Assembly: GCA_963754015.1 (NCBI GenBank)
Contig: CAVWEG010000004.1
Location: forward strand, 262,455-326,454
Source of the DNA: Candidatus Dormiibacterota bacterium
GTDB lineage: Bacteria; Chloroflexota; Dormibacteria; Aeolococcales; Aeolococcaceae
Reading direction: 5' to 3'
DNA length: 64,000 nucleotides
The notes under the pieces are model-generated. The model was given only the letters and a program-made list of their open reading frames with translations, did no database searches and was not told the DNA's origin. Position 1 is the stretch's first letter. The number at the start of each line of letters is the position of its first letter. A program made the position numbers and the translations under genes. Positions 14,306 to 38,202 of the stretch are shown piece after piece.

Positions 14306-14983
14306 GTGACTGAACAGGCCCACACGTTCGCGGATCCTCTGGATGTCGCGCCTCGCCTAGCCGCCCTCGGCCTGACGGAGGGAGTGCTCAGGGATGCCCT
14401 TGCGAGCGGGGTCCAGCAGGCATCCTCATGCACGCGGCACGATCCTCCCACGATGGCCGGCACCCTCATCTGGGGGAAGTCGATCCGGTATCTACGGGAT
14501 GCCCTAGTAGTTGAAGGCTGGCGAGCCAGCAACACGCGTAACTACCCGACGACGGTACATCCCGACTGCAATTGGCAGATTGCGGTCTCCAGTGGCGACG
14601 AGAACACAGGAGTCCTTCATCCTGTCCATCCGCCTCGTACCAAGAATCCAAAGGGTCCGGCAACGAAGGACGCCGCGGAGCGCAATACCCAGCAGATGGT
14701 CATGTTTCCGGAGTTAGATCCTCCGCAGGACACCGTAGAGGAGATCATCCCGGCTCAGACTTGGTTGCTTGTTTACCATCCGGATCGGAGTCGCAAGATA
14801 ATTCGGTGTGAGTTGTCGCTCCCGAAGTCGGTAGGAGACGACGGGCGAATCGATGATTGGTTGGATCGGTTGATCTTGCATCCAATCTCACTTGATCACG
14901 GTGATGATCAGGAGGAGATCTTCACTGATCCGAGTGACGACTTAGGTGATGAGGAAATCGATATTCGCATCGATCGTCGCTAG
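14306..14983 (+). CDS. Hypothetical protein with acidic C-terminal tail (225 aa)
   Basis: GTG start; ends 11 nt before the XRE-ImmA gene, so probably one operon; no family recognised. Confidence 0.6.
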   Translation: MTEQAHTFADPLDVAPRLAALGLTEGVLRDALASGVQQASSCTRHDPPTMAGTLIWGKSIRYLRDALVVEGWRASNTRNYPTTVHPDCNWQIAVSSGDENTGVLHPVHPPRTKNPKGPATKDAAERNTQQMVMFPELDPPQDTVEEIIPAQTWLLVYHPDRSRKIIRCELSLPKSVGDDGRIDDWLDRLILHPISLDHGDDQEEIFTDPSDDLGDEEIDIRIDRR

Positions 14984-14994
14984 CCGTATCCGCA

Positions 14995-16167
14995 ATGTCA
15001 CCTGAGTTCAAACCATCGCGTCTCGTCTTAGCTCGTGAGAGACGGGGTATGACCAAGGCCACCCTAGCGGCAAGCGCTGGCGTCACCATTCGAAGCATCA
15101 CGAACTACGAAGGTGGCTATCATTACCCGGCCGCGACAACTCTTCATCGGCTAGCCTCTGCACTGGATTTCCCTCCAGGTTTCTTCCTAGGCCCAGACCT
15201 GCAGCCGGCTCCCATCGAGGCCGCGAGCTTCCGTGCCCTCAAGAACCTCACCGCACGGCGACGGGATCAAGCGAAGGCTTCTGCCACATTCGCACTCGCT
15301 CTCAGCAGGTGGATCGACAAGCGATTTAAGCTGCCGCCACCAAGCATTCCTCGTCTCAGTTATCTCGCTTCCCCGGAGATCGGCGCCGAGGTCGTCCGAC
15401 GCGATTGGGGAATCGGCGAGAGGCCCATCACCAACGTGATCCATCTTTTGGAATCCCATGGCGTTCGAGTGTTCTCGCTTGTTGAGGAGTGCGCGGAACT
15501 GAATGCGTTCTCTCTGTGGATTGAGGACGTCCCGTATATCTTCCTCAACACCATGAAGTCGGCTGAGAACAGCCGCATGGATGCCGCGCACGAACTCGGG
15601 CATCTAGTCATGCACTGGGAGCACGGATCATCGATTGGACGGGACAAGGAACGCGATGCCCAAGCATTCGGCGCAGCGTTCCTGATGCCGCGCGGCAGTA
15701 TTCTAGCGAATGCGCCTAGGACAGGGCACCTGACAGAGATCAATCGTGCGAAGCTCATTTGGAAGGTATCGTTGGCGAGTTTAGTCTTCCGTCTTCACGC
15801 ACTGGGCTTGTTGTCCGATTGGCAATATCGCAGTGCGTTCATCGAACTGTCGAGCCTCGGCTATCGTCGGGCAGAGGCCGACGGGATTCCGCGAGAAACT
15901 TCGCAGGTGCTCACCAAAGTATTCGATGCCCTGCGATCTGAAAACGTGTCGAAGTCAGACTTGGCGGAAGAGCTGGCAATTCCGGTCGAGGAACTCAATC
16001 GTGTCGTCTTTGGACTGTCACTAACCACGCTTCGAGGAACTGAATACGCTACCGGTGCATCGCGGTCGTCGCCGCCACTTCGCGTAGTGAATTCGTCAAA
16101 GGGCGCTGCTGATATTCGCGATCCATCGGTAGTTCCAACAGACCTTGCATCCCACCCATCGGCCTGA
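14995..16167 (+). CDS. XRE HTH fused to ImmA/IrrE-family (DUF955) zinc metallopeptidase
   Basis: N-terminal RERRGMTKATLAASAGVTIRSITNYEGGYHYPAATTLHRLASAL (HTH_3); central AAHELGHLVMH HEXXH motif followed by AQAFGAAFLMP. Confidence 0.85.
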   Translation: MSPEFKPSRLVLARERRGMTKATLAASAGVTIRSITNYEGGYHYPAATTLHRLASALDFPPGFFLGPDLQPAPIEAASFRALKNLTARRRDQAKASATFALALSRWIDKRFKLPPPSIPRLSYLASPEIGAEVVRRDWGIGERPITNVIHLLESHGVRVFSLVEECAELNAFSLWIEDVPYIFLNTMKSAENSRMDAAHELGHLVMHWEHGSSIGRDKERDAQAFGAAFLMPRGSILANAPRTGHLTEINRAKLIWKVSLASLVFRLHALGLLSDWQYRSAFIELSSLGYRRAEADGIPRETSQVLTKVFDALRSENVSKSDLAEELAIPVEELNRVVFGLSLTTLRGTEYATGASRSSPPLRVVNSSKGAADIRDPSVVPTDLASHPSA

Positions 16168-16348: not shown

Positions 16349-17458
16349 GTGGTCAGCGAAGAAACGTCAAGGGAAGTGGCTGCCCCTAGACAGAACAGCT
16401 CGACCGAGAAACCGCCAATGCCTCCCGCCGAGGTCCAACTCCTCAAGAAGGCCAGAGAGTCCGCCCTGCAAGCAGTCCGGGTCTATAACGACCCCGTAGG
16501 CGGATTTCGCACAGAGACGTTCATCGTCTTGATGGTCATCGCCTGGAACGCCATATTCCAGGCGATGCTCGAACGGGACCACATCGACTGCTACGAGCAC
16601 GATGCCCTAGGCCACGAGATCCTGATCGAGGGCCGGCCTAAGGTCTGCGATACCTGGGCGCTTGCCGGCCTCGCCATTCCCCAACATGAGACGCGAGCCG
16701 TGCGGGCGAACCTGGACTTTTTCTTACGCCTTCGCCACCGCATCTCGCACCGCTACCTGCCTGCGCTTGACCTCCACGTGACCAGTGAGGCGCAGGCGAT
16801 GCTCCTCAACTTCGAGAACTTGCTATCCAAGGAGTTCGGAGAAGAAGCAGCCCTGGGCGATCAACTCGCGGTACCCCTTCAGCTGTCGGGATTTCGTGAC
16901 GCGAGCCGGATGCGCTCGCTTCGGGTCGCACAAGCACAGCTCCCGGTGGACGTACAGGAGTTCTTGCGCCGCCACCGCTTGGAAGTCGACGATGACGTTC
17001 TGCGTTTCTCGGAATATGCGCTCCCCATCTTCTTTGTACCGGTTGCCGCCAATCGGGAGCGCTCGGCAGACGCGATCGTCCGCTTCGTTCGTCCAGCTGA
17101 TGTGTCCCCAGAACTCGAAGCTGCCCTCGAGCAACTCGCCGTCGTGGCCAAGCCCAAGAAGGTGCCGGTCGCGTCGAACGACCTTCTCCGAGCCAAAGAG
17201 GTCATCAAACTCGTGAGCGACAGTGCCTCCTTTCGGTTCACGTCGGACCTCCACCAGAAAGCCTGGAAGTTTTTTCATGTCCGCCCATCGCCCGGAGCGC
17301 CAGACCCGGCCATGACAGACGAGCGCTACTGCCGATGGGACAGGCTGCTGGGCGGGTACGGGTATACGTCTGCCTGGGTGGACAAACTGACCAATGATTT
17401 GGGCGACCCCGACGTCTACCGGACGGTGGCGGACTACAAGTCACCGCAGCGGGACTGA
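16349..17458 (+). CDS. DUF3644-like domain protein (Abi-like context)
   Basis: ARESALQAVRVYNDPVGGFRTETFIVLMVIAWNAIFQAML matches the remembered DUF3644 N-terminal signature (AIE-YN-P...AWE-LLKA). Confidence 0.6.
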   Translation: MVSEETSREVAAPRQNSSTEKPPMPPAEVQLLKKARESALQAVRVYNDPVGGFRTETFIVLMVIAWNAIFQAMLERDHIDCYEHDALGHEILIEGRPKVCDTWALAGLAIPQHETRAVRANLDFFLRLRHRISHRYLPALDLHVTSEAQAMLLNFENLLSKEFGEEAALGDQLAVPLQLSGFRDASRMRSLRVAQAQLPVDVQEFLRRHRLEVDDDVLRFSEYALPIFFVPVAANRERSADAIVRFVRPADVSPELEAALEQLAVVAKPKKVPVASNDLLRAKEVIKLVSDSASFRFTSDLHQKAWKFFHVRPSPGAPDPAMTDERYCRWDRLLGGYGYTSAWVDKLTNDLGDPDVYRTVADYKSPQRD

Positions 17459-17759
17459 CTTCCGACGAGAGTGGAAGAAGCGCGTATTGGCCCCCGCAAG
17501 CACACAACTTCGCATCAGTTGCGTCACCCTCAGCGCCGGTGCGAACATATGTGCCCGGGAAGGGGAATCGCCACGGATGTACCCGTCGCCTTATAGCCCT
17601 TCCGGGGGCTTCATGGCCCAGCAGCGGGGCAGGATGCAATGGAAATCCAAGAAGCCGCCTTCAAATATGCGGCCCTTGACGGTTCGCAGCGGCTTAGTGC
17701 CCGACCGTGAAATGGGCTCGCCACTTTCTGATCGTCATCCGCATCCGAGGTCGTGTTCG

Positions 17760-18725
17760 ATGACTGCGAAGTCGACCGTTGCTGCTCCTCCCGATCCCGT
17801 AAGCTTCGCAACGCAGGGACATCATTTCAGCGCGGCCAACGCGGTCGACATCACCACACTCGCAGCACATGCCACTGCTCCGCTCTCGGTGATCGTCCAG
17901 ATAACGAAGCGATGTAACTTCGACTGCAGCTTCTGCTCTGAGACCCTTCAGATGCGGGATCCATCGATATCAGACCTCGCGACGATGGCGACGAATCTGT
18001 CGGGCACCAAACGTGTCTTTCTCTCAGGTGGCGAACCCCTCTTGCGGCGTGACTTCATCGAGGTCGTCGATCTCTTCCATGAGTACATCGTCGGCGTCCC
18101 GACTAATGCTACGCGGGGGCTCGTCCACGCGCGCGCGATGGTCGGCAAAGTCGCATTCGTAAACATTGGTCTCGAAGGTCCGCGGGCAACGACGAATCGC
18201 GTGCGCGGCGATTACGATAAGGTGATGAGTGGCGTACACGCCTTTGTGGAAGCACGCCTCCCGATCTCGTTGTCCGCCGTCGTGTATAGATCCACCCTCG
18301 CGGCACTCCCCTTCACTTACCAAATCGCTGATGTCCTGGGAGCAGGGAAGTTGAAGCTCATCCTCCCGCTGCGCAAAGGCAACGCCCTCCATCTCGAGAA
18401 GGGTGAGTTTATTTCGCACGAGGAAGCTGGCCTCACCTTTGATCGTCTGCTCGAGCTCCGGTCGACTTTCGATTGGCGTCCAGCGCTCCGGATGACGACG
18501 TGGACCCCAGAGACCGAGGGACACATGATTGTCATCGAGCCGAACGGCACCGCGAACGCCTGGCCGGTGTACGACGCACCCGATCTCTTTCAACCGCTCG
18601 GCAATGTGCTAGAAGAGCCGATCACGACCTTGTGGGCACGATACCGATTCCGTGCCAACCATTTCGCGAAGTACCTCGGCCAAAGCATCCGCAGCGTGGA
18701 ACACTCCGAACCTTCGCGTGCGTGA
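17760..18725 (+). CDS. Radical SAM enzyme, small viperin-sized (about 321 aa)
   Basis: CNFDCSFC (CX3CX2C) cluster motif in VIVQITKRCNFDCSFCSE; downstream SGGEPLL glycine-rich SAM motif; no extra Cys clusters, so not SPASM-type. Start taken at ATG 17760 (GAGG 9 nt upstream), with ATG 17712 as an alternative. The ORF-track start at 17394 overlaps the upstream gene and is rejected. Confidence 0.85.
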   Translation: MTAKSTVAAPPDPVSFATQGHHFSAANAVDITTLAAHATAPLSVIVQITKRCNFDCSFCSETLQMRDPSISDLATMATNLSGTKRVFLSGGEPLLRRDFIEVVDLFHEYIVGVPTNATRGLVHARAMVGKVAFVNIGLEGPRATTNRVRGDYDKVMSGVHAFVEARLPISLSAVVYRSTLAALPFTYQIADVLGAGKLKLILPLRKGNALHLEKGEFISHEEAGLTFDRLLELRSTFDWRPALRMTTWTPETEGHMIVIEPNGTANAWPVYDAPDLFQPLGNVLEEPITTLWARYRFRANHFAKYLGQSIRSVEHSEPSRA

Positions 18726-19371
18726 CTTTACGAACCTTTCGTGGGCTGAAGAGCCTTTCGGCGCTGCTCATCGACCGGGCATGCGCCGCGGCGAGGTCGG
18801 GATCGGGATCCATATCGCCTGGTCAAATTCGCACAAGTATCTGGGCTTCGACGCCGCATATCTCCGCTTCCCGCGCCGCCAACCACTCCATGCCACCAGC
18901 GCGACGCTGGACTTCGGGTTCCGCTCGCTACGTATCGAATCTCCGCTCGATGAACCATCAGCTCTTGAGGCGCTAAGTGCTGTTCTTGTGGCTGCGCGAC
19001 GGGGTTCGTGCCTGCTAGCGGCCTCCCATCTGGGGGCAGACTTGTCGCTGCTGCGCAGTGAGTCCTCGACCTCCTATCGAGGTATCTCGGCGCTCGCGTT
19101 CGATTGGGGGCGGCGCGCAACCGCGAGCCCAGCGCTAGCCACGCTCGTCGACACAGAGATCGATGTGCCTCCGAAAGATGAGACCTCGATCAACCACCTA
19201 ACCGGTTCACCGCTGCCCGCGTCCTCCGATACCACCGTTGTCGCGGGCGTTACCGAAGCTTTGCGGCGGCTAATACGTGCGGCCGCTGCGATCTCTCGAA
19301 TCGTGGTGCTCGACGACTTCGATCTGGCCGAAACCGTCGATGCTGCGACCTGGGACGCCGTCCCAACCTAA
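18718..19371 (+). CDS. Degenerate paralog of the exonuclease-like protein 20023..20793
   Basis: GTG 18718 overlaps the radical SAM stop (GTGCGTGA). VGIGIHIAWSN...YLRFP...CLLAASHLGADLSLL aligns with VIAAVDVEWTKN...YIRFP...CVVGHQLSSDLAVL of the paralog, but the D-x-E acidic pair is replaced by H-x-A. ATG 18781 is an alternative start. Confidence 0.55.
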   Translation: MRDFTNLSWAEEPFGAAHRPGMRRGEVGIGIHIAWSNSHKYLGFDAAYLRFPRRQPLHATSATLDFGFRSLRIESPLDEPSALEALSAVLVAARRGSCLLAASHLGADLSLLRSESSTSYRGISALAFDWGRRATASPALATLVDTEIDVPPKDETSINHLTGSPLPASSDTTVVAGVTEALRRLIRAAAAISRIVVLDDFDLAETVDAATWDAVPT

Positions 19372-19412
19372 CACCGTCTTGCGGTCACGATCCTAATCTA
19401 TGGCGTTTGCAA

Positions 19413-20021
19413 CTACGTTCCGAGCAGCCCCCGCGTCTCGAGCTGATCACTCGTCCAATGGACGCGTGCCGGCGTGGGGAGGTCGAGTGGGAGCAGCATC
19501 ACCTCAGTTCCTACCTGTTGGAGCACCTCGCGCAGTTGCACGTCGATGTCCTTCCGATGCGCCACCACCTTGGAGCGAAGAGGGTCGGCGACGAGATCTT
19601 GCCGAAACTCGTCTGCGCAATATACGACCGCGTCATACATCGATCTCATCGCTCTACAGAATGTCTCCATCGCCATGCAGATGTCCGCCATACGGACGTC
19701 GCTCATATCAAGGAGCGCTCGGACATGAGCCGGGACGTTCATGATTGTCTTGTCCGCAACGAGGAGCTGATGTCCGCGTGCGGCGCGAAGCTGTGCGCTC
19801 AGCTGAGCGCCGAAAAGGTCCGCTTCTGCGACCACATCGAAGGTCCCGACACCGTGTAGCACGATCTCATCGATGAAGGGGGAGACGCGTGCAGCCTCGC
19901 CCGCATACCCGGCATTGATGCCGTTTTCGCGGCAATGCGCGACGAGCGCAAGCGCGAGCGTTGTCTTGCCGCTCGCCTGTGCCCCCTCGACAGCGACGAC
20001 CACACAATCGCGCACTGTCAT
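19413..20021 (-). CDS. P-loop NTPase, AAA_28/NadR-kinase-like
   Basis: Walker A VEGAQASGKTTLALAL; overall pattern resembles NadR-type ATPase/nucleoside kinase domains. ATG 20021 lies 1 nt after the stop of the upstream gene. Confidence 0.7.
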   Translation of the reverse strand: MTVRDCVVVAVEGAQASGKTTLALALVAHCRENGINAGYAGEAARVSPFIDEIVLHGVGTFDVVAEADLFGAQLSAQLRAARGHQLLVADKTIMNVPAHVRALLDMSDVRMADICMAMETFCRAMRSMYDAVVYCADEFRQDLVADPLRSKVVAHRKDIDVQLREVLQQVGTEVMLLPLDLPTPARVHWTSDQLETRGLLGT

Positions 20022-20022
20022 C

Positions 20023-20793
20023 TCACGCGACCAGCGCCTGGAAGGCCGGTGCTGACAGCCACTCATACTGTCCCTCGAGCTCCGTCATCAGCAGATGATT
20101 GACGTTGAGCTGCCCGCTCCAACGGACGCCGTATGTGGTGGTGAGTGCAACCAACGCAGTCGAGAGGCTGTGCCGAAGATTGAGGATGGTTATCCGCTCT
20201 CGTGCTGCAATCGTTCTGCTCACGAGCCAACGACGATGAAGCGCAGTCATTGAGATGCCCCATAGCTCCGGTTGCGTTACCTCGAGTCCGAGCTCACCGC
20301 ATACATCGACGAGGCGCCGCGACTTGCCAGTGAGCGCCTCGCTCACGTCATACCGAGTGTCGATAACAGTACGCTCGCAAACATCCGCGTCCCTTCGCGC
20401 ATGCCAGGCGGTGCGCAGCGCCTGAACGCCGAGAAGCCGCCTCGGACCGGCCTGCGCGAGCACCGCTAGGTCGCTCGAGAGTTGGTGGCCAACCACGCAG
20501 TCGACCTCCTGCCGAATCGCTCGGAGGCGATGGTCGATGCGTCGAACGAGATCTCCAGTTTCCTCGTCGGACTCAACGTAGGAACTCTCGTAGAAAAAGC
20601 GCGCCGACGAGTCGATATCCGTTGATCGCGAGTTGGGAAAGCGGATATACACGATGGAATAGCAAAACGGGACGTTGCCGCCCCGAATCCGATAGTTCTT
20701 TGTCCACTCCACATCGACTGCCGCAATGACCCTATGGCCGCGGCCAGATAGGGATGCATCTCCCTTTCTTGGAAGGTTGCCAGCAGAGATCAC
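20023..20793 (-). CDS. Putative DEDD/DnaQ-like 3'-5' exonuclease-fold protein
   Basis: AAVDVEWT (Exo I D-x-E), VGHQLSSDLAVL (Exo II-like) and later VIDTRYD and RHSLS acidic/His positions. Assignment is from motif spacing only. Confidence 0.6.
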   Translation of the reverse strand: MISAGNLPRKGDASLSGRGHRVIAAVDVEWTKNYRIRGGNVPFCYSIVYIRFPNSRSTDIDSSARFFYESSYVESDEETGDLVRRIDHRLRAIRQEVDCVVGHQLSSDLAVLAQAGPRRLLGVQALRTAWHARRDADVCERTVIDTRYDVSEALTGKSRRLVDVCGELGLEVTQPELWGISMTALHRRWLVSRTIAARERITILNLRHSLSTALVALTTTYGVRWSGQLNVNHLLMTELEGQYEWLSAPAFQALVA

Positions 20794-20921
20794 CGGCCTG
20801 AGACCGCCCGCTCGTGCAACTGGGCGCGTCGCCGCTGGCCCGCTCTCCGTTGATGCGCTTGTGGCTTCTGTAGAATACCTAAACGAATCATGCCGTTTTC
20901 AGGATAACCGAAATTAGACTT

Positions 20922-21242
20922 ATGACACGATATTATCCACCCGATGAGAAGCTGATCGATCAGCCCAATACGTTCGTGCTGACCGTGCGCCTGCCTGCGC
21001 CGCTTGAGCGCCGGGTCAAGGATCTAGAGAATCAAGCTCGCAACGCCGGCATGCCTGTTCAGCGCTACACCCTGATTGGAGGCTTGCTCATGCACGTCCG
21101 ATTCACCGACCAGGAACTCGTGGAGCTATTGCTCGCGTATAACACCGATCTCGTGGCATCCGTCGGTGAGGTCGATCCCCGATACGGGCTACGGGTCGTG
21201 CACGGGAAGCGCGGCCGTCCGTCACACGTGGACGCAGTCTAG
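20922..21242 (+). CDS. Small hypothetical protein, possibly ribbon-helix-helix-like
   Basis: TFVLTVRLPAPLERRVKDLENQARNAGMPVQRYTLIGGLL resembles a beta-strand plus two-helix RHH layout; AT-richer upstream region. Confidence 0.45.
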   Translation: MTRYYPPDEKLIDQPNTFVLTVRLPAPLERRVKDLENQARNAGMPVQRYTLIGGLLMHVRFTDQELVELLLAYNTDLVASVGEVDPRYGLRVVHGKRGRPSHVDAV

Positions 21243-21307: not shown

Positions 21308-22108
21308 TCAGTCCAGCGCGAAGCCCGATCGCAATGTAGCTCGCGACGCGTCCGTGCCCCGCGCCTCTCGCAGTTGCTCGCGGAGCCCGATGCACGCGCA
21401 CCACGGCAAAGACATGGCATGCCCGCAATCCGGGCACAACACACGCTGTTCGTGCACCATCGCCTCACGCACGCCGGCGATGCGCATTCGTTGCAAGAGG
21501 ATGTGCATCACCGCGACATCAAAGTAAGCCGCAGCAGCCTCGTCCGAGAGCTGACTCAACGTCGCGAGTTCCGCTGTAGGCGCTAGCAGCTCTCGGGCGA
21601 ACCAATCTGCGGTCCATTCCTCGGACTCGTGGCAGTGAGGGAGCTGTCCACGCTGCACCAGAATATGACCGAGTTCGTGCGCGACGACCCAACGCCACCG
21701 CGGTGAGGACGTAATCGTTGAGGCTACGAAGATGGTCCGGCCGGCCTGAGCCATTCCTTGAATACAGTCGAAATCGGCCGCCTTGATGGTGATCCCGAGT
21801 TGGCGGCATGCGACCGCCAGTGATGCTTCCCCAACTGCGCCAGCGCCCAGCATCGCGACGCTGCGGACTGCCTGAGCAACCCCGGGTATGAGCGGGCGAA
21901 TCTCTGGGTGCGAGCTCCGTTCGGAACGCACGTCCACGAACCAGAGCGGAAACTGCCCCGCCTCCTGGGGTGGCGCCCCCAGCTGAGCCCCGTGCGAGCG
22001 GCGCGCCAACAACGCCGGCCGCAGAGCTTTCGGACGAGTCAACACGCCGGGTATCCAAACATACGTTCGATTCAGTGTCAACCCACCATGCGGTCGGGAC
22101 CAGGACAA
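21308..22108 (-). CDS. ImmA/IrrE-like HEXXH metallopeptidase with C-terminal Cys cluster
   Basis: VVAHELGHILV, then ADWFARELLAP, then CPDCGHAMSLPWCAC; starts 36 nt after the HD gene stop. Confidence 0.7.
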   Translation of the reverse strand: MSWSRPHGGLTLNRTYVWIPGVLTRPKALRPALLARRSHGAQLGAPPQEAGQFPLWFVDVRSERSSHPEIRPLIPGVAQAVRSVAMLGAGAVGEASLAVACRQLGITIKAADFDCIQGMAQAGRTIFVASTITSSPRWRWVVAHELGHILVQRGQLPHCHESEEWTADWFARELLAPTAELATLSQLSDEAAAAYFDVAVMHILLQRMRIAGVREAMVHEQRVLCPDCGHAMSLPWCACIGLREQLREARGTDASRATLRSGFALD

Positions 22109-22144: not shown

Positions 22145-23950
22145 TCATTCCTCGCCGGCCGGTCGTTCCTCCAGGGCGTGACGCCAATTCAAAAGAAGCT
22201 GCTCGATGCTCGGTCGGTCACCCTCCGACTCGGGGAGCGCAAGCTGGACCGCCTCGACCGCGCTGCCGGCGACTGCATCCAGTTCGCTCGCTGTCATGCT
22301 GAGGTCAAGCCCGACTTGGCGAGCCACCTCCTGTTGAAGGAAGGACAGTTGCGAGAGGTTGACTTGGTCCATCCAACCGGTCGGATATGTGACACCTAAG
22401 TCATACAACGACGGCGCTTCGAACTCCTCGGCACAAAGGGCGGCGAGCGTTTGCCGGCGACGGGTGGTGTCGGCTGCGCTCTCTGCGGGCCGAACATAGA
22501 CGAGGATTCTCCAGAGGAGCCGATGAGCCTCGTTCAAGGCCGTCACCCGGTTCGAGCGTGCTCGATCCCATTCGTGCAGTGACGTGATCGAACCGTCAGA
22601 GCGCTCCACGCGCACCGCAGCCACCTTCTCCATCATCCGCTCCGCCGGGATGTGTACGAGCACGTCTCCCGGCTCCAACCCCATTTGTCGTGCAACCCGA
22701 TCCTCAAAGGCACTGCGTTGCTTAGCCGTCCGATACCGATCGGTGATCGCCTTGACGTTGTGCCCAAGCTCGGCGTGCGTGGCCAGGTACGCGACCTTAT
22801 ATAGGCGACGCTCCAACAAGTCCGAACCAATACGTGCCGCCCTCGCGCGCCGCTGTGGGTCTGCCGTTGCTGGGATACCCAGGGCATCGGCCAGATCCGG
22901 AACGGCGAGCATTCGGAGCAAGAGGTCATCGGAGATAGCAATCCCTCGCGGCAGCCCCGGCGCATTGGCAAAGAGCATTCGTGTGGCAGGTCCAGACTTG
23001 AGACCGGTTCCTCGAGGGTCCGCTTCGTGAAGGCCGAGCTCTTGCACCGCTCGGCCAACCATGACCGACGCGGCATTCTTGGCGTGGTGAAAGTAGACTC
23101 GCTCGGCCAGTTCGTAACGGTAGGTGAGAAGTTTGATCACCTCGAACTCGACATCCGGTCGCGGCATTCCGTGCTTCTCAAGCCGCAATGCCATGCGGTT
23201 GATGTCGTAGCCTCCACTGATTGCTCCCATGGGTGACTTGGTGATGACGAAATACGTGAGGAAACGGTCACCGAGAGCAACTGGCATCCCGCAAGCTTCA
23301 AGGTCGCGCACGACATAATCGAGCAAGTCGGCGCAGACCGTGTTGCCCACGATGTCAGCGACGAACGGATATGTGAGCTTGGCGATGTCGGCCTCATTCT
23401 TGGCCGTGAGAATCCTGCCGAGCTCGTCAATTTCTCCGTCTGCGAGATCACGGTGTTGGTGTGCTCGCGCCAAGGCCCGGGCGATGCCCCCCGTCTTGAA
23501 GAGGAGCTGCCACCGCTCAGCGTCCTCATCGTGACGTGGGAACAGATTAAACTCGTCCTCAAGGGTATGCCCGAACGGGATATGTGGCAGATCGTGTAAC
23601 AGAGCAGCGAGTCGCGTCAGGCGGCGTGCCTTCGCGTCCATCGGGACCATGTATGTCGCGTCCGGGTTTTTCTCGAGAGCGTCGATGACGCGTTGCGCCG
23701 TATGCAATGTCCCGAGCGAATGCTCGAACCGGGTATGCAGCGCGGAACGGAAAACATAATTGCTAGACCCGAGCTGGCGCACTCCGGCCAGACGCTGGAA
23801 CTCTGGAGTGTCGACAATGTCAATCTCCACCCCGAAGAGGCGCACGTCCTGCGAGGACGCGAGCGTGAACAGCTTGGTTCGAACGTCGTGGGTGTAGGGC
23901 GATCGCGGCGGTGGGTCGGGACGGCGAACAGGGACTCCGGAGACCGACAT
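22145..23950 (-). CDS. HD-domain phosphohydrolase, SAMHD1/dNTP triphosphohydrolase-like (601 aa)
   Basis: IVDTPEFQRLAGVRQLGSSNYVFRSALHTRFEHSLGTLH and LAALLHDLPHIPFGH are the canonical H...HD motifs and the N-terminal FQRL box of this family. Confidence 0.85.
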   Translation of the reverse strand: MSVSGVPVRRPDPPPRSPYTHDVRTKLFTLASSQDVRLFGVEIDIVDTPEFQRLAGVRQLGSSNYVFRSALHTRFEHSLGTLHTAQRVIDALEKNPDATYMVPMDAKARRLTRLAALLHDLPHIPFGHTLEDEFNLFPRHDEDAERWQLLFKTGGIARALARAHQHRDLADGEIDELGRILTAKNEADIAKLTYPFVADIVGNTVCADLLDYVVRDLEACGMPVALGDRFLTYFVITKSPMGAISGGYDINRMALRLEKHGMPRPDVEFEVIKLLTYRYELAERVYFHHAKNAASVMVGRAVQELGLHEADPRGTGLKSGPATRMLFANAPGLPRGIAISDDLLLRMLAVPDLADALGIPATADPQRRARAARIGSDLLERRLYKVAYLATHAELGHNVKAITDRYRTAKQRSAFEDRVARQMGLEPGDVLVHIPAERMMEKVAAVRVERSDGSITSLHEWDRARSNRVTALNEAHRLLWRILVYVRPAESAADTTRRRQTLAALCAEEFEAPSLYDLGVTYPTGWMDQVNLSQLSFLQQEVARQVGLDLSMTASELDAVAGSAVEAVQLALPESEGDRPSIEQLLLNWRHALEERPAGEE

Positions 23951-24235: not shown

Positions 24236-24856
24236 TTAGCCCTCGTCGCAGTCCCGACAGATGGATGCTCCAGCCCTGAACTGCGATTTTCCTTTTGTCA
24301 GATGACACTTCGTGCAGGTCCTGGTGGCCGGCGCTGGAGCACCGCATCCGCAACGTTTACACACGCGGCAGCGAGCGTCACCACAGGTCTCACAAGCCCG
24401 CGTTCCCCAGGCTGGCCCTCCACAGTGGCGACATGTTCCGGAGTACGCCTGAGGCGCCGCCTTCGTCACCCCTGGGTCATCCAAGAGAGTTAGCCCAGTA
24501 TGTGGCCAATAGCAGTACGCGGAGAACACCGCAATGACAATGGCTCCGGCTCCGACCGCATCGACCCAGAAACGCTTCCGGTATCGACTTGCCCAGACAA
24601 CATCTCCCTGACCGACGAAGGTACCGCTGACTCCGGCCTGCCACACGGAATGGTCGATGGGAAGAGACGTTCCACGAAGCCACGCGTACTCGCACTCTCC
24701 TGACTGTGATGCATATCGGACCTGCCTCCGCTCCCGATCGAGCAGGGCAACGTACCCTTCGCAGCCGATTCGGTCGGCAAGTCGGACTGCGCATGCTTCC
24801 ATAGACCCGGCGGTTGCGTTGTAAAGCGCTTGGACATCTGCCGCCGGGGTCGTCAA
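24236..24856 (-). CDS. Hypothetical protein with TM segment and C-terminal multi-CxxC zinc-ribbon region
   Basis: C-terminal CRHCGG...CETCGDARCRVCKRCGCG...CTKCH...CRDC; overlaps the upstream ImmA-like gene by 4 nt. Confidence 0.6.
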   Translation of the reverse strand: MTTPAADVQALYNATAGSMEACAVRLADRIGCEGYVALLDRERRQVRYASQSGECEYAWLRGTSLPIDHSVWQAGVSGTFVGQGDVVWASRYRKRFWVDAVGAGAIVIAVFSAYCYWPHTGLTLLDDPGVTKAAPQAYSGTCRHCGGPAWGTRACETCGDARCRVCKRCGCGAPAPATRTCTKCHLTKGKSQFRAGASICRDCDEG

Positions 24857-25302
24857 CCGACAAGCACAGCGGCAACCGCCTCATCAGGAATCAGGATCCG
24901 TCCCGCGATCGCATCACAGAGGCGTTCTTCCGCTCCTATTCCTCCATCCGCATCCACATCAGCCAGCTCCGACAACAAGTCGTCATCGGACATCACCAGG
25001 TGATGCCCGAACTCATGGAGCACCGTGAAGTTCTCACGCCGACTTCGCGGCATGGCGACATAGCAGATGGCTTGCTGATCGTGGAAATACGCACCATCGC
25101 AAGAACACACATCGGTGGTGTCGCTGCTCGACACCTCACCGACACGTAGCCCGGCTCCCCGCACCGCTGTGACAGGCGAGCTGGCGAGTTCGCGGCGCGC
25201 CTCCATGCTGAGCGCCGCGTCGAGCCGCTTCGCATATGCGCTCCAGTCTCGATTCACATTTCCCCAGTAATCACCTGATAGACGTCGATGAGGCGCTGCC
25301 AA
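24853..25302 (-). CDS. Small ImmA/IrrE-like HEXXH metallopeptidase
   Basis: VLHEFGHHLV motif, then ERLCDAIAGRILIP, which resembles the family's second conserved block. Confidence 0.65.
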   Translation of the reverse strand: MAAPHRRLSGDYWGNVNRDWSAYAKRLDAALSMEARRELASSPVTAVRGAGLRVGEVSSSDTTDVCSCDGAYFHDQQAICYVAMPRSRRENFTVLHEFGHHLVMSDDDLLSELADVDADGGIGAEERLCDAIAGRILIPDEAVAAVLVG

Positions 25303-26335: not shown

Positions 26336-26738
26336 GGTGTGTCTGGGATGCTCTTATGCCGCAATGGCCTCGCACTTGTCGCGGTAAACGCGGCACATTC
26401 CGAGCACCGTCAACGGTTTACGATCGCGCACGAGATTGGGCACTTCATGTTGCATAAAGGGTGTCTACATCGACAAGACGACCCGCATCAACGAGCGTCC
26501 TTCTGGAACGCGCTCGAAGTCGGCGATGGGGATATACACTGACGAAGTCCAGGCCAATGCATTTGCCGCGGAGTTGTTGATGCCCGGCGATATGTTGGTG
26601 CGTGAGTTTACGCTGCGTCTCCGCTCCGGGTCGCGCGTGGTATCCGCAATCGTTGCATCGTTAGCTGAACGCTTCAACGTGAGTGCCCAGGCTATGGAGA
26701 TTCGCCTCAAAGTGACCGGAGCGCTCGCCCCGTACTAA
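26312..26738 (+). pseudogene. ImmA/IrrE-family metallopeptidase split by a frameshift
   Basis: ORF 26312..26542 carries FTIAHEIGHFMLH. The overlapping ORF 26436..26738, in another frame, carries EVQANAFAAELLMP and the family C-terminus. Confidence 0.6.
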
Positions 26739-28081: not shown

Positions 28082-29356
28082 ATGACCGAGACATTACTAG
28101 GGACATCTGAGAGGACATGCGAAGGGACCTTTCAGGGGACCCTCCGTCTGAAACCAGAACTCACATGCCTCGAGACCCACCCGTGGCTGACGTTCGTTCT
28201 CGACCTGAGTAAGGCGCAGTACCCGCTCTGGCTGGGTCTAGGAGAAGCCCGTTCAAAGATCGAACACATTGCCGGCGTTCCCATTCAGCCGGAATTCGCC
28301 GAGCGGCTCCACGAGGTGTTTCTAGCCAAGGGGGCCCAGGCAACGACAGCAATCGAAGGAAACACGCTCTCCGAGGAGCAGGTCCTCGAGCAGGTGCAGG
28401 GGCGCCTGACTGTCCCCCCTTCACAGGAGTACCTCAAGCAGGAGGTCAAGAATATCCTAGACGCGCTGAACCTAGTAGCGAAGCAGACAGTGCAGTCGCA
28501 TCGCTCAGCGGAGGTGCGGCTCTCCCCTGACCGGATCAAGGAATTCAATCGCCTGGTGCTCCGGGATTTGCCCCTGAACGACCCGGATATCGTTCCAGGC
28601 GAATACCGCGGGGACCGCCGAGTTGTCGGCATGTACCGGACGCCACCGCCCGGGGAGTGCGCACCCCTCATGGAGCTCTACTGTGACTGGCTGAACGGCG
28701 ACGATTTTCACACGGTGTCGGGCGATCTGGACCCTGTATCCATCGCGATTCTCAAGGCCGTAATCGCGCATATCTACTTCGTCTGGATCCACCCTTTCGG
28801 CGATGGGAACGGCCGAGCCGCGCGATTGATCGAATTCCAAATCTTGCTGGAAGCTGGCGTACCCCAACCGGCCGCTCACCTCTTGAGCAATCACTACAAC
28901 CAGACACGTGCCGAGTACTACCGGCAACTGAGCGCTGCCAGTGTGTCCGGGGGAAATATCGTGCCGTTTCTCACGTACGCTGTCGGCGGCCTCGTCGATC
29001 AACTGAAGGGCCAGATCGCTTGGATCCGCGAACAGCAAATGAAGGTGACCTGGGTCAACTACGTTCATGAGCAGTTTGCGAATGACTCGACGACAACAGC
29101 GGTACGTCGTAGGAAGCTCGTGCTTGCCTTGACCGAGCGTGATAAGCCGATGCCGCGAGGTTCGCTGCGCAAGCTGACGCCTCAGCTCACCGAGCTGTAC
29201 GTCGGAAAGACAGTCAAGACACTCGCTCGTGACTTGAATGTTCTGCTCGATGACTCGCTGATCGTCCGCGAGCGCGGCGGATATCGTGCCCATCGAGAGA
29301 TCGTCGCCGGTCTACTTCCGACCCGCCGCCGGGGGCAAGGTACACAGATCAGTTAG
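28082..29356 (+). CDS. Fic/DOC family protein
   Basis: HPFGDGNGRAARL is the canonical Fic motif HxFx(D/E)GNGRxxR; probable C-terminal winged-helix-like region. Confidence 0.9.
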   Translation: MTETLLGTSERTCEGTFQGTLRLKPELTCLETHPWLTFVLDLSKAQYPLWLGLGEARSKIEHIAGVPIQPEFAERLHEVFLAKGAQATTAIEGNTLSEEQVLEQVQGRLTVPPSQEYLKQEVKNILDALNLVAKQTVQSHRSAEVRLSPDRIKEFNRLVLRDLPLNDPDIVPGEYRGDRRVVGMYRTPPPGECAPLMELYCDWLNGDDFHTVSGDLDPVSIAILKAVIAHIYFVWIHPFGDGNGRAARLIEFQILLEAGVPQPAAHLLSNHYNQTRAEYYRQLSAASVSGGNIVPFLTYAVGGLVDQLKGQIAWIREQQMKVTWVNYVHEQFANDSTTTAVRRRKLVLALTERDKPMPRGSLRKLTPQLTELYVGKTVKTLARDLNVLLDDSLIVRERGGYRAHREIVAGLLPTRRRGQGTQIS

Positions 29357-32406: not shown

Positions 32407-35400
32407 CTATCCTCCTCCGATGAGCCAGCGAATATACGCTCGAGTCACATCGGCGATCACCGTGACAACAGTCCCTCCAGGGACCTTTCCGACAAAAATA
32501 CCCGAACGCGAATCAAAGTAGCCTGTCCTCAACTCGCCGCTGGCCGGATCATTATATGCAAATGGAGTGCGTGTCATGGCTGCGTCCACCTGAGCTTGAC
32601 TAATGCCTCGGTCGGCCATTTGCTGCGCCGCATGTGACGAGAGATCACATTCGGTGTCGTTGTGGACAAGAACATCGGAGCCGGCAATCCCGATGAAAAA
32701 GTCGTGATCTCTGTTAACTGTGAGGTCATACATCCACCCAGTCCCCGCCACAGACGTGAGTTGCACGACCGTCGCTAGCTGACCATTTGCGGTGAGTAAC
32801 TGGTCACCGATACGAAGATTGAACGCCGGCGTCCAGCTATGCGATGTGACATCCCAGAAGAGGTGATTGGCGGTGGAGTGCACCGTTGACCGCGCCGTTG
32901 TCGTGAGCACCGTGATGTCCATCAGATCGGCATCATCGTGAAGCCATAGAGCCGTGACGGTTTCAGACTGGATCTTCCCAGTCGCAGGATCGGTGGCCAT
33001 GACCTGGTCACCGGCCAACACTTGGCTGATAGGGATCGTGCTGCCGTCCGCCAGGAGCACCTCCGTGCCAGCCGAGAAACTCTCTCCGCCGCACATCGTC
33101 GGAGTGCCAGCGTCGTCACCGATATCTCCAGCTTCCCCGTCGGCTGAGGTCAGGGCATCCCAAGCTGCCGTAGCTCCCTCGTCGGCCGGCAAAAGGGCGT
33201 CAATAGCCGCCCCCACCCACTCGAACAACTCGGCACCTACGAAGCCCTCAGCACAAGCCACCGCCGCATTGACAAATGCGTCGCCCCAGTTGACCTTCCG
33301 TCCGCTCAGCACGTCGGCGATATCCGGGACAAGGCTAATTACAGCACCGACCGCACATCCCTCGAGAAGGAATTGTCCCGTCGGATCCGTGATGTCCACA
33401 GGGTCGCCCGCGGCATACGAGTACAGATCAGTACTTCTGCCGTTGAACCCGAGCGGGTCCTGGCTAATGAAACGAGCCTCGGATGGGCTGTAATACCGAG
33501 CTTGGTCGTAGTCCAACCCAGTGCCGTCATTCTGCTGCCCGACAAACTCGAATGGATTCGCACTGCTCGTTCCGTTCGTCGACGCGTTGCCATATGGATC
33601 GTAGGTGTACGTGGTCGGCACCGCCCCCGACGAGTTCCCCAACCCCACCGTGGTCCCCAACGAATCAGTCAGCAGTGACGACGTCCCGGTGCCGTCGGTG
33701 CGGGAGAATACCTCGTCGAGCCCTTGTCCGGTGAGCGTGCTGGCGGTCACGGTCCCTCCAACCAGGTTCTCGAGCACATTGCCGCCGTCCGTCAGGTAAT
33801 CCGTGGTCAAACCGCCTACAGTCGACGACTGACGTACTCCGAACGGGTCATAGCTGTACGTCGCATTGCTTACTCCGCTTATACCCGTCAGCTGTCCCCG
33901 ATCGTTCCAGCTGTACGTGTTGCTCGGATCGCTGGTCAGATTTCCATCGTTGTTGTAGTGCAGCGTCGATCCGTTCTGACTCGCGAGCTCGTTGTCAGCG
34001 TTATACGTCCACGTCGATGTCGTCGCCGTCGGCAGTGCGACCTGCGAGAGTGTCCCGCCGACGGAGGTACGTTGCCCATCCCCGTCGTACCCATACGTCA
34101 ATGTGCCCACCGTGGTCGAGCCCGATGTGTCGGTTATGCCGGTCACCTGGCTGGCAGCGTCGTAGCCGTACGTCTCAACAATTCCGTCAGGCAGTGTGAC
34201 CGTGCTGGGGCGCAGGTCCGCGTCTGGCACGATGCTAACACTCTGCGAACTGGTGCTTTCACCTGTCAGCGCCCCGGCGGCGTCGTAGCCGTACGTAACC
34301 ATTGAGCCGCTTGATGGTGTCATCGTGTGTCGGTTACCGTCCGCGTCATACGCGTAAGCGACCGATCCTTCGGGACCGCTATCAGAGGTGAGGCGATCGA
34401 ACCTGTCGTATCCGAGAGTGTAGGTGCCTGACGCTGAGTCCACGATTCCGGTGAGCCTGTTCCCTAGGTCATAGCTGTCACTGATCTTCGATTGCTGCGT
34501 TGTAGGTCCCGTAACTCCATAGCGAGCCGTCGCCAGGCGGTTCATCGGGTCATAGGTGAACTTGTCCACCGCCCCGTTCCCGTCCGTGACCTGCACAATG
34601 TTGCCGAGACCGTCATACACGTACGAAGTCGTGTTCGTCAGCGCGTCCGCAACGCTCCCTGCCTGATCCATGTCGTTCGGGCTCACGGTGGTCAGGTTGG
34701 TGTCTGGGTCTTCGACTAAGGTGACGTCGCCGTTAGGATTGTAGGTGTACTGCGTGGTGTCGCCCAACGCGTCTTCCACCGCGGTGACTTGGTTCATCGC
34801 ATCGACGGTGTACTGCGTGGTATTCCCATCGGGGTCCGTCGACTGCAGAACTCGCCCGCCGGCATCAACGTACTGCGTGGATACATTGCCGTCCGGATCG
34901 GCTACCGCCACCAAGTCGCCGTTGAGATAGCTGTAGTAGGTCACATTCCCAAGCGGATCCGTGACCGAGGTCGGCTCACCGTTCTGGGTGGTAGTGATCG
35001 TCTGGTTCCCGAGCGCATCAGTCGCGGTGATGACGCCGACTCCGCCACTGTCGTCTTGGTACCCAATGGTGCTGGTGTTGGTCAGCGGGTCTTCGACTGA
35101 TGCGAGTTGGTGGGATATGGGTTCGTACGTGAAGGTAGTCGTCTCGGCCGACGCGGTTCCGTACATCATCGTGATGGTCAGGACACCTCCATACGCGTCG
35201 TACGTGTAGTGCGCGTCACGACCCAACTGGTCGACGGCGTCGGTGACCTGATGCGTGGTCCCGTCCAACGTATATGTCGTTTCCTCTTGATCGGCAGTGC
35301 CCGATGCATCGGTGGTTGAGGTGAGATGTCCAGAGCTATCGAATGTCGAGACGCTTACATTGCTGTCTGGATCCGTCACAGTGGTCGCAGTGACGCTCGA

Positions 35401-38199: not shown

Positions 38200-38202
38200 C
38201 GC

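Follow-up and report, generated by a model that had tools for sequence, protein, structure and literature searches.

What do the four tightly packed genes at positions 17712–20793 of a 64,000-nucleotide stretch of a Candidatus Dormiibacterota genome (GCA_963754015.1, contig CAVWEG010000004.1, positions 262,455 to 326,454; this whole stretch is called the window below) do, and do they form a single system? An earlier note described them as two convergent gene pairs encoding a radical S-adenosylmethionine (SAM) enzyme (rSAM), two exonuclease-like paralogs (proteins A and B) and a P-loop NTPase, and proposed an undescribed defence or nucleotide-modification system. The second half of the question has a plain answer, as the genes together constitute a conserved, functionally linked cassette, present here in a rearranged version. 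As to the first half, we tentatively favour, with somewhat less than even confidence, a conflict-related pathway that would modify a free nucleotide and in which the exonuclease-like protein would be an obligate partner.

All four open reading frames (ORFs) are present in the positions originally given. On the plus strand, the gene of rSAM (17760–18725, 321 aa, Pfam Radical_SAM) is followed by that of protein B (18718–19371, 217 aa), a paralog of A without the D-x-E pair. On the minus strand, the gene of protein A (20023–20793, 256 aa), predicted to have a DnaQ/PolB-type 3'–5' exonuclease (RNase H-like) fold, is followed by that of a P-loop nucleotide-kinase-like NTPase (19413–20021, 202 aa, Pfam AAA_28). 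The motifs quoted for rSAM (CNFDCSFC and SGGEP) and for A (AAVDVEW and GHQLSSDLAVL) were all found. Translation of rSAM probably starts at 17760, judging from the 321-aa gene calls in two close metagenomic relatives of this locus (L086 and L087); position 17712 is also an ATG, from which the protein would have 337 aa. Upstream of 17760, the same frame has no stop for another 122 codons (17394–17759), overlapping the end of the preceding DUF3644 gene. The claimed overlap of the rSAM stop and the GTG of B amounts to 8 nt (GTGCGTGA), with the GTG placed 3 nt before the TGA within the final rSAM codons, an arrangement that suggests translational coupling. The stop of A and the NTPase ATG are one nucleotide apart, and the convergent stop codons flank a spacer of 41 bp (19372–19412), both as described previously. 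Read directly, the spacer contains no terminator-like hairpin, and the same junction is present in L086 and L087. No promoter-like sites were found between positions 17300 and 21300, and the window includes neither tRNA genes nor additional copies of the four cassette genes. The ratios of nonsynonymous to synonymous substitution rates (dN/dS) measured against the closest relative, L087, are 0.07 for rSAM, 0.14 for both the NTPase and A, and 0.27 for B. Such values correspond to purifying selection, which argues that all four genes are functional.

The gene set is not limited to the window, so that one outcome named in the earlier note as refuting its proposal, homologs of the four genes that never lie together in other genomes, is clearly excluded. 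In a scan of one genome per species, protein A was found in 111 of 185,579 species, nearly all of them Actinomycetota, and the cassette recurs in the 80 species-representative loci that were fetched, 64 of which have enough flanking sequence to define their architecture. The common layout is a co-directional operon, rSAM-B-A-kinase-NUDIX, with all five genes present in 42 of the 64 loci. Nine more have rSAM-B-A-kinase with no NUDIX gene, five have kinase-rSAM-A or rSAM-A (four of these with MazG), and the remaining eight are partial or decayed, truncated copies being frequent. In every intact architecture rSAM and A are either adjacent or parted by B alone. The convergent layout stressed in the earlier note, in turn, is real in the window but is a rare rearrangement, neither ancestral nor a design feature, since it occurs in none of the 64 loci and is common only to L086 and L087. 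The window copy also lacks the fifth gene, whether NUDIX or MazG, and no NUDIX-like sequence is found in the whole window. Taken together with the restriction of the layout to these relatives, this points to a lineage-specific inversion of the A-kinase pair accompanied by the loss of the fifth gene.

The identity of that fifth gene reinforces the nucleotide theme proposed before. Clustering of neighbours placed a MutT-like NUDIX hydrolase of ~150 aa directly after the NTPase in 42 loci, and MazG, also an NTP pyrophosphohydrolase, takes its place, depending on the lineage, in the actinobacterial three-gene variants (L080–L083) and in three loci outside Actinomycetota (L088–L090). The latter cassettes run from rSAM through an A-like protein and a P-loop protein of 178 aa (VEGIDCSGKSSL) to MazG, and the rSAM of L088 is a true ortholog, 39% identical along its whole length to the enzyme of the window (E = 2e-82). 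Thus, the kinase is present nearly always, while the fold of the NTP pyrophosphohydrolase varies. The occurrence of two unrelated NTP pyrophosphohydrolase folds in one slot is the strongest clue that the cassette handles free, probably non-canonical, nucleotides.

The description of the NTPase as of NadR/AAA_28 type stood in its second half, with AAA_28 matched at 40.2 bits against a threshold of 27 (E = 5e-10), but NadR is a Pfam label only. The Walker A motif, VEGAQASGKTT, belongs to the P-loop type of thymidylate and deoxynucleoside kinases. The score of the window protein against Thymidylate_kin (PF02223), 13.4 bits, is below the 27-bit threshold, and its orthologs have precomputed AAA_28 matches together with weak Thymidylate_kin matches. 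The ortholog in Streptomyces phage Gilgamesh (gp42) is annotated as 'thymidylate kinase'. The only kinase with an unqualified match, a member of Thymidylate_kin by precomputed Pfam, is found in locus L093 (2888–5685). In that locus, the gene of the thymidylate kinase forms an operon with those of a distant A-like protein and of an rSAM (427 aa) that has a Cys-rich C terminus and belongs to a different family; it may be an ancestral or a parallel version of the system.

Assignment of the first gene to the radical SAM superfamily is secure (Pfam PF04055, 50.3 bits against a cut-off of 29.5, E = 4e-13). Residues C52, C56, and C59 form the CxxxCxxC motif, followed by the SGGEP SAM-binding motif, and since these are the only cysteines in the protein, the SPASM Cys clusters are absent, as had been noted. 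Homologs of rSAM (n = 762, ~65–92% identity) are spread across Micromonospora, Frankia, Streptomyces, Kitasatospora, and other Actinomycetota, and many Arg and Lys residues are invariant in the family. It is also not a housekeeping enzyme, as all NCBIfam scores are far under their cut-offs. MoaA (46 bits against 231–325), QueE (23 against 260), and PqqE (43.7 against 381) were rejected in this way, and so were NirJ and other housekeeping families.

The comparison with viperin drawn in the earlier note holds for the size of rSAM and for its cluster motif but not in tests specific for viperins. The viperin model NF038283 scored 26.5 bits against a cut-off of 180, and only over residues 63–124. 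The PADLOC models of prokaryotic viperins (pVips) match residues 60–168 only. In a profile search of solved structures, viperins were matched in the cluster-binding region only and were outranked by PqqE, SkfB, AbmM, MoaA, and BlsE. In viperins, an N-x-H motif located just upstream of the CxxxCxxC loop contacts the nucleotide substrate. When the viperin-like protein of T. virens (SVNYHFTRKC) is aligned with rSAM (SVIVQITKRC), I-V-Q is found in place of this motif, and the family shows no variation at either I45 or Q47. The AlphaFold2 model of rSAM (mean predicted local distance difference test score, pLDDT, 84.6) has among its Foldseek neighbours SkfB, viperin, CteB, SuiB, anSME, PqqE, AbmM, BlsE, and MoaA, with template modelling (TM) scores of ~0.55–0.65. 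Its C-terminal part, with a β-hairpin and a helix, carries a cysteine-less motif of the type IEPNG…PLGN…W, whose resemblance to SPASM/twitch domains was judged by eye. We conclude that rSAM is a distinct family, nearest to the PqqE/SkfB/MoaA group, and not a viperin. The C-terminal motif and the L093 operon indicate that it probably descends from SPASM/twitch-type ancestors from which the auxiliary clusters have disappeared.

The AlphaFold2 model of protein A (mean pLDDT 89.5, predicted TM score 0.91) agrees with the exonuclease-like fold previously suggested for it. All 50 top Foldseek matches in the PDB are DEDD exonuclease domains (Pol α, PolB, TREX1, RNase T, QIP, and DinG among them, best E 2e-4), while matches in BFVD are mostly to the exonuclease domain of PolB and to YprB-like and DEDDh proteins (best E 2e-5). 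The scores are modest (E 2e-5 to 1e-2, TM 0.3–0.5). A resembles the DnaQ-like DEDD exonucleases (the PolB domain, YprB-like proteins, TREX1, and RNase T) at the level of the fold only, differing from them in having no sequence-profile relation to any member of Pfam, NCBIfam, or the PDB. No Pfam or NCBIfam family was matched; in the PDB, a single-sequence phmmer search gave no match and the family profile only spurious WD-repeat matches. The PADLOC DEDDh model was reached at E = 0.014 only. The 781 homologs of A are all annotated as hypothetical and are without Pfam domains. A profile search of 1.84 billion cluster representatives returned only 236 proteins at E ≤ 0.001, so that the family is small and sharply bounded; the ten distant proteins inspected all belong to the A or B families. 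The same search reached a divergent low-GC subfamily with the motifs DTEW, GHQL(S/T)SD, DTRYD, and NxRH.

Three acidic residues of A (D27, E29, and D108) do not vary among 41 sequences. D27 and E29 end the first strand of the model and D108 starts the helix that follows strand 4, which are the positions of the Exo I and Exo II motifs, and in the distant subfamily these residues are retained within DTEW and GHQL(S/T)SD. H186, H208, Y148, D149, D163, and E199 are also invariant, with none of them in the H-x4-D or Y-x3-D spacing. A long insert conserved in the family (SRRLVDVC…QPEL…SMTALHRRW) is specific to it. Going by the model, A founds an unannotated protein family with a predicted DnaQ/PolB-type 3'–5' exonuclease fold.

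The paralogy of A and B, noticed originally from shared motifs, is borne out by BLASTP (E = 1e-7 over 126 residues) and by a comparison of the two family profiles, that of B being built from 54 ORFs at the B operon position in related loci (HHalign probability 99.4%, E = 2e-21, 190 columns). The loss of the D-x-E pair applies not only to the window protein, which has IGIHIAW at this place, but also to the family, whose consensus shows no conserved acidic pair. B evolves fast, with the highest dN/dS of the four window genes. A word-based homology search found only three homologs, and no model of PADLOC-DB v2.0.0 was matched by B. Several lineages that retain the remaining cassette do not have B.

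The constant proximity of rSAM to A and B brings up two explanations in which the enzyme would act on something other than a free nucleotide. It could mature a protein, modifying A and/or B in the way that anSME modifies sulfatases and thereby activating a nuclease effector, with B serving as a decoy or a chaperone. Protein- and peptide-modifying SPASM/twitch enzymes (PqqE, SkfB, MftC, and anSME) are indeed the best sequence relatives of rSAM, its gene overlaps that of B by 8 nt, and L093 pairs a different, SPASM-like rSAM with an A-like protein. However, an enzyme with three cysteines in total has none of the auxiliary-cluster cysteines typical of maturases, and the conserved kinase and the NUDIX/MazG swap would be left unexplained. 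C44 and C165 of A, although invariant, are not conserved in the distant subfamily. Maturation of A or B is therefore considered very unlikely.

Alternatively, rSAM and the DEDD-fold protein might work on a polymer, in that an exonuclease-like site would hold the 3' terminus of a phage RNA or DNA, which could, for instance, be made non-extendable or be cleaved, whereas the kinase and the pyrophosphohydrolase would be only regulatory or would balance the pool. This possibility agrees with rSAM and A being the sole universally adjacent pair, with the many invariant Arg and Lys residues of rSAM, and with the retention in A of the metal-binding D-E-D residues, which grip the 3'-terminal nucleotide in DEDD enzymes. 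On the other hand, RlmN/Cfr, MiaB, and spore photoproduct lyase, radical SAM enzymes that act on polymers, are not among the families nearest to rSAM, and no nucleic-acid-binding domain was detected. The constant presence of kinase and NTP-pyrophosphatase partners indicates free nucleotides instead, making action on a polymer unlikely.

The cassette is mobile, and one of its carriers is a virus. In Gilgamesh (MN234216, 129 kb), a cultured phage of Streptomyces, the five-gene form is encoded as gp39–43, located between the integrase and helix-turn-helix (HTH) genes on one side and the portal gene on the other. It is the only one of 50,697 phage records with the cassette, which is also present on five IMG/VR contigs. 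In several Streptomyces loci, a portal–MuF fusion lies downstream of the cassette. Streptomyces assemblies include contigs of 125–128 kb with the cassette (L051, L064, and L075) that match Gilgamesh in size as well as in the portal gene, the latter match extending to IMG/VR loci L096–L098; the assembly contigs suggest that culture-collection strains harbour complete prophages of the Gilgamesh type, which may be extrachromosomal. When Gilgamesh-like elements were retrieved with nothing but the portal gene, they proved to share a conserved gp44-gp45-portal block, and at least 10 of the 16 carry different cargo at the position of the cassette. This alternative cargo (L104–L116, ~7 kb upstream of the block) gives, in some elements, matches to MADS mad2, mad3, and mad8 and to PDC-S07. 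Since the contents of the same site differ, the cassette is variable phage cargo at a hot-spot rather than a core phage function.

Carriage by phages might nevertheless mean that the cassette benefits the phage, either by supplying a hypermodified (d)NTP for its genome (anti-restriction) or as a counter-defence, the chromosomal copies then being prophage remnants. The full cassette of Gilgamesh and of the five IMG/VR contigs, together with the 125–128 kb contigs bearing the matching portal gene, fits this proposal, and so does the set of enzymes, which parallels the T4 dCTPase, hydroxymethylase, dNMP kinase, and DexA, as well as MazZ and PurZ of the Z-genome phages. It is opposed by the single occurrence among 50,697 phage records, by the variable rather than core status in Gilgamesh-like elements, and by the absence of phage genes within 6 kb of most of the 80 loci, many of which lie beside regulators, transposases, or defence genes. 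In Gilgamesh itself, the cassette adjoins the integrase and HTH genes, the usual place of genes expressed from a prophage. A function in the service of the phage is accordingly given a low probability.

Outside phages, the cassette is found in diverse surroundings. In L088–L090, it is located between a type II CBASS (patatin, CD-NTase, E1/E2, and JAB) and NERD/UvrD plus SACS/NOV_C genes. Locus L003 adjoins a type I restriction-modification system, and L004 adjoins an integrative element. One locus lies on a Lentzea plasmid (L020); no plasmid of PLSDB carries A. The locus of the closest relative, L087, includes a dCTP deaminase defence gene (E = 5e-130). The immediate neighbours in actinobacterial chromosomes (n = 150) comprise XRE- and WhiJ-type regulators, DUF397, HATPase_c_2, transposases, and relaxases, as well as Cas3 in two loci.

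The actinobacterial setting could also speak for metabolism unrelated to conflict, such as the biosynthesis of nucleoside natural products, the salvage or sanitation of nucleotides, or the repair of nucleic acids. Nucleoside antibiotics abound in the hosts, the structural neighbours AbmM and BlsE are enzymes of nucleoside-antibiotic pathways, and WhiJ-type regulators are frequent next to the cassette. Nevertheless, no transporter, tailoring, or resistance genes accompany it, the core is also found beside CBASS outside Actinomycetota and in a phage, and its distribution is sporadic, with frequent decay of the copies. A purely metabolic role is thus quite improbable.

In the window itself, the flanking HD, ImmA/IrrE (M78), DUF3644, and Fic genes listed in the earlier note are all there, and matches to PADLOC models make the defence-island neighbourhood genuine. 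Upstream on the plus strand is a complete RosmerTA-type pair (14306–16167), consisting of RmrT (ORF 14306–14983, E = 1e-61) and RmrA (ORF 14995–16167, E = 6e-139); the latter, an HTH plus M78 peptidase protein, had been listed merely as an ImmA/IrrE peptidase. It is followed by the DUF3644 protein (16349–17458, plus strand), which matches the PADLOC candidate PDC-S19 (E = 2e-79) and shares 86% identity with the corresponding protein of L087 (4043–5116), a conservation like that of rSAM. In this clade, DUF3644 therefore travels with the cassette, whereas the outer genes of the two loci differ; in other lineages, it does not rank with the most frequent families of neighbours. Downstream, three ORFs of M78/ImmA-IrrE peptidases, some of them short and fragment-like, occur within 6 kb (21308–22108 and 24853–25302 on the minus strand and 26436–26738 on the plus strand), the first with a weak CapP-like PADLOC match. 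Between the first two lies a gene for a 601-aa protein with HD and HD_assoc_2 domains (22145–23950, minus strand) that weakly matches a defence dGTPase in its N-terminal part (E = 2e-7); it was not seen in L087, whose contig ends shortly after the cassette. A Fic protein (28082–29356, plus strand) matches the SoFic model (E = 4e-54). Farther along, on the minus strand, a 1930-aa RHS-repeat protein with PT-HINT and DUF4258 at its C terminus, preceded by a 1473-aa LamG/fn3 protein (together 32407–42624), suggests a polymorphic toxin. Close to the cassette, a 106-aa ORF with no family match (20922–21242, plus strand) is divergent from the A-kinase pair. L087 has this ORF at the same position with 72% identity, and ~40 nt directly upstream of it, within the intergenic region 20794–20921, are conserved there as well. 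The ORF may encode a regulator of the cassette specific to this clade.

None of the four curated libraries that were scanned has a name for the cassette, in keeping with the earlier note, which did not recognize the combination. In PADLOC-DB v2.0.0, it matches no named or candidate system, with mad8 and PDC-S01 giving weak matches (E ~0.004–0.008), and no name or description of this gene set was found in the literature searched. Three kinds of known systems come close. With the pVips, above all those encoded beside nucleotide kinases, the cassette shares a TMPK-like kinase next to an rSAM of ~300 aa, which has a single [4Fe-4S] motif and lacks auxiliary clusters, and a defence-island location, and viperins are among the best structural matches of rSAM (E ~1e-10, TM ~0.6–0.7). 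The similarity is, however, confined to the cluster-binding N-terminal third, the C-terminal domain being SPASM/twitch-like, and viperin operons have no equivalents of the two DEDD-fold proteins and the NTP pyrophosphohydrolase, obligate or frequent here. SPASM/twitch enzymes (PqqE, SkfB, MftC, and anSME) and MoaA are, by sequence profile, the best relatives of rSAM, from which it differs in having no auxiliary-cluster cysteines.

The second system, Ophion, consists of OpnA (an rSAM), OpnB (a PHP protein, PHP standing for polymerase and histidinol phosphatase), and OpnC (a phosphoribosyltransferase, PRTase), and is a validated defence system in which a non-viperin rSAM is joined by a proofreading-type PHP and a nucleotide enzyme (bioRxiv 10.1101/2025.09.30.679545). 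It thus offers a validated precedent for such a combination. Its partners differ from those described here, with PHP in place of the DEDD fold and PRTase in place of the kinase and NUDIX/MazG, and it occurs in Gammaproteobacteria, whereas the cassette is mainly found in Actinomycetota. No PHP or PRTase domain was detected in the cassette or its conserved neighbours, the comparison with Ophion covering the partner proteins.

Finally, the pre-replicative pathways of phages are made up of gp56 dCTPase, gp42 hydroxymethylase, gp1 dNMP kinase, and DexA in T4, and of MazZ, PurZ, and DatZ in Z-genome phages. They follow the same logic, in which an NTP pyrophosphatase acts before an NMP-modifying enzyme and this before a dNMP kinase, while NMPs are supplied by a DEDD exonuclease. 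In contrast, the modifying enzyme of the cassette is a radical SAM protein, no dedicated polymerase or transferase stands alongside it, and the cassette is variable cargo and mostly chromosomal. The cassette is analogous to viperin-plus-kinase operons and to Ophion while being a member of neither. What was proposed in the earlier note has been upheld as far as a conserved, unnamed, nucleotide-centred, and defence-associated cassette is concerned, but neither membership in the viperins nor the roles of effector and sensor for A and B have found support. By analogy with these systems, the cassette could be a further case of radical-SAM nucleotide-based immunity, with two unannotated protein families, although we put this at a little under an even chance.

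The reading favoured here, modification of a free nucleotide in a conflict-related pathway, is parsimonious with regard to the substrate, as three accessory activities make or consume free mononucleotides. The structural relatives of rSAM include AbmM, MoaA, BlsE, and viperin, all of which act on nucleotides. Mobility, location in defence islands, and the status of prophage cargo favour an anti-phage role. Several observations weigh against it. Known defence genes are a minority among the 150 actinobacterial neighbours (Cas3 in two, against many regulators of XRE/WhiJ type), a modest signal in a raw count taken without a background rate. The SPASM/twitch-like lineage to which rSAM belongs often modifies peptides and proteins, and the constant adjacency of rSAM and A also fits a pair of maturase and substrate. 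The Exo III motif (H/Y…D) of A is not assignable, leaving its exonuclease activity putative. Carriage by phages fits a function benefiting the phage equally well. Additionally, the window copy has no pyrophosphohydrolase, which indicates that this step is not essential everywhere.

For the substrate, the product, the order of the steps, and the defence phenotype, the following scheme can be suggested. The module would act on free mononucleotides, with the pyrophosphohydrolase and/or the exonuclease supplying or clearing the (d)NMP. The nucleotide would then be chemically modified by rSAM and re-phosphorylated by the kinase, so that a non-canonical (d)NTP might build up, by which the synthesis of phage nucleic acids would be either poisoned or marked. 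Together with the pyrophosphohydrolase, A, which may form a heterodimer with B, would feed this pathway or else shield the host by clearing the analogue from the nucleotide pool and from 3' ends. The DEDDh exonuclease nsp14 is described as excising the viperin product ddhC from RNA (PMC9415739), a precedent for a DEDD enzyme handling a terminator made by a radical SAM enzyme. The biological role would be that of an anti-phage or inter-phage defence cargo. We can speculate further that the antiviral nucleotide chemistry is without precedent, with a SPASM-derived rSAM making the analogue, a heterodimer of active and inactive DEDD-fold proteins in Actinomycetota, swappable NUDIX and MazG, and use by temperate phages as superinfection-exclusion cargo, but this fuller version is doubtful.

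The five-gene version is encoded by a cultured and publicly held phage, Gilgamesh, whose host, S. lividans, is genetically tractable, and the cargo hot-spot of Gilgamesh-like elements is worth mining. Under the favoured reading, the replacement of NUDIX by MazG and the pairing of an active with an inactive exonuclease suggest a built-in arm for self-protection or for the supply of the substrate, which has no counterpart in viperin systems. Even if the cassette were not involved in defence, such a tightly conserved partnership of an rSAM with an exonuclease-fold protein would still be biochemically unusual. Were the favoured reading true, it would represent another radical-SAM route, after viperin, to immune nucleotide analogues and a possible source of chain terminators or antimetabolites, and it would provide a function for two unannotated families, A, with ~780 homologs and no Pfam family, and B.

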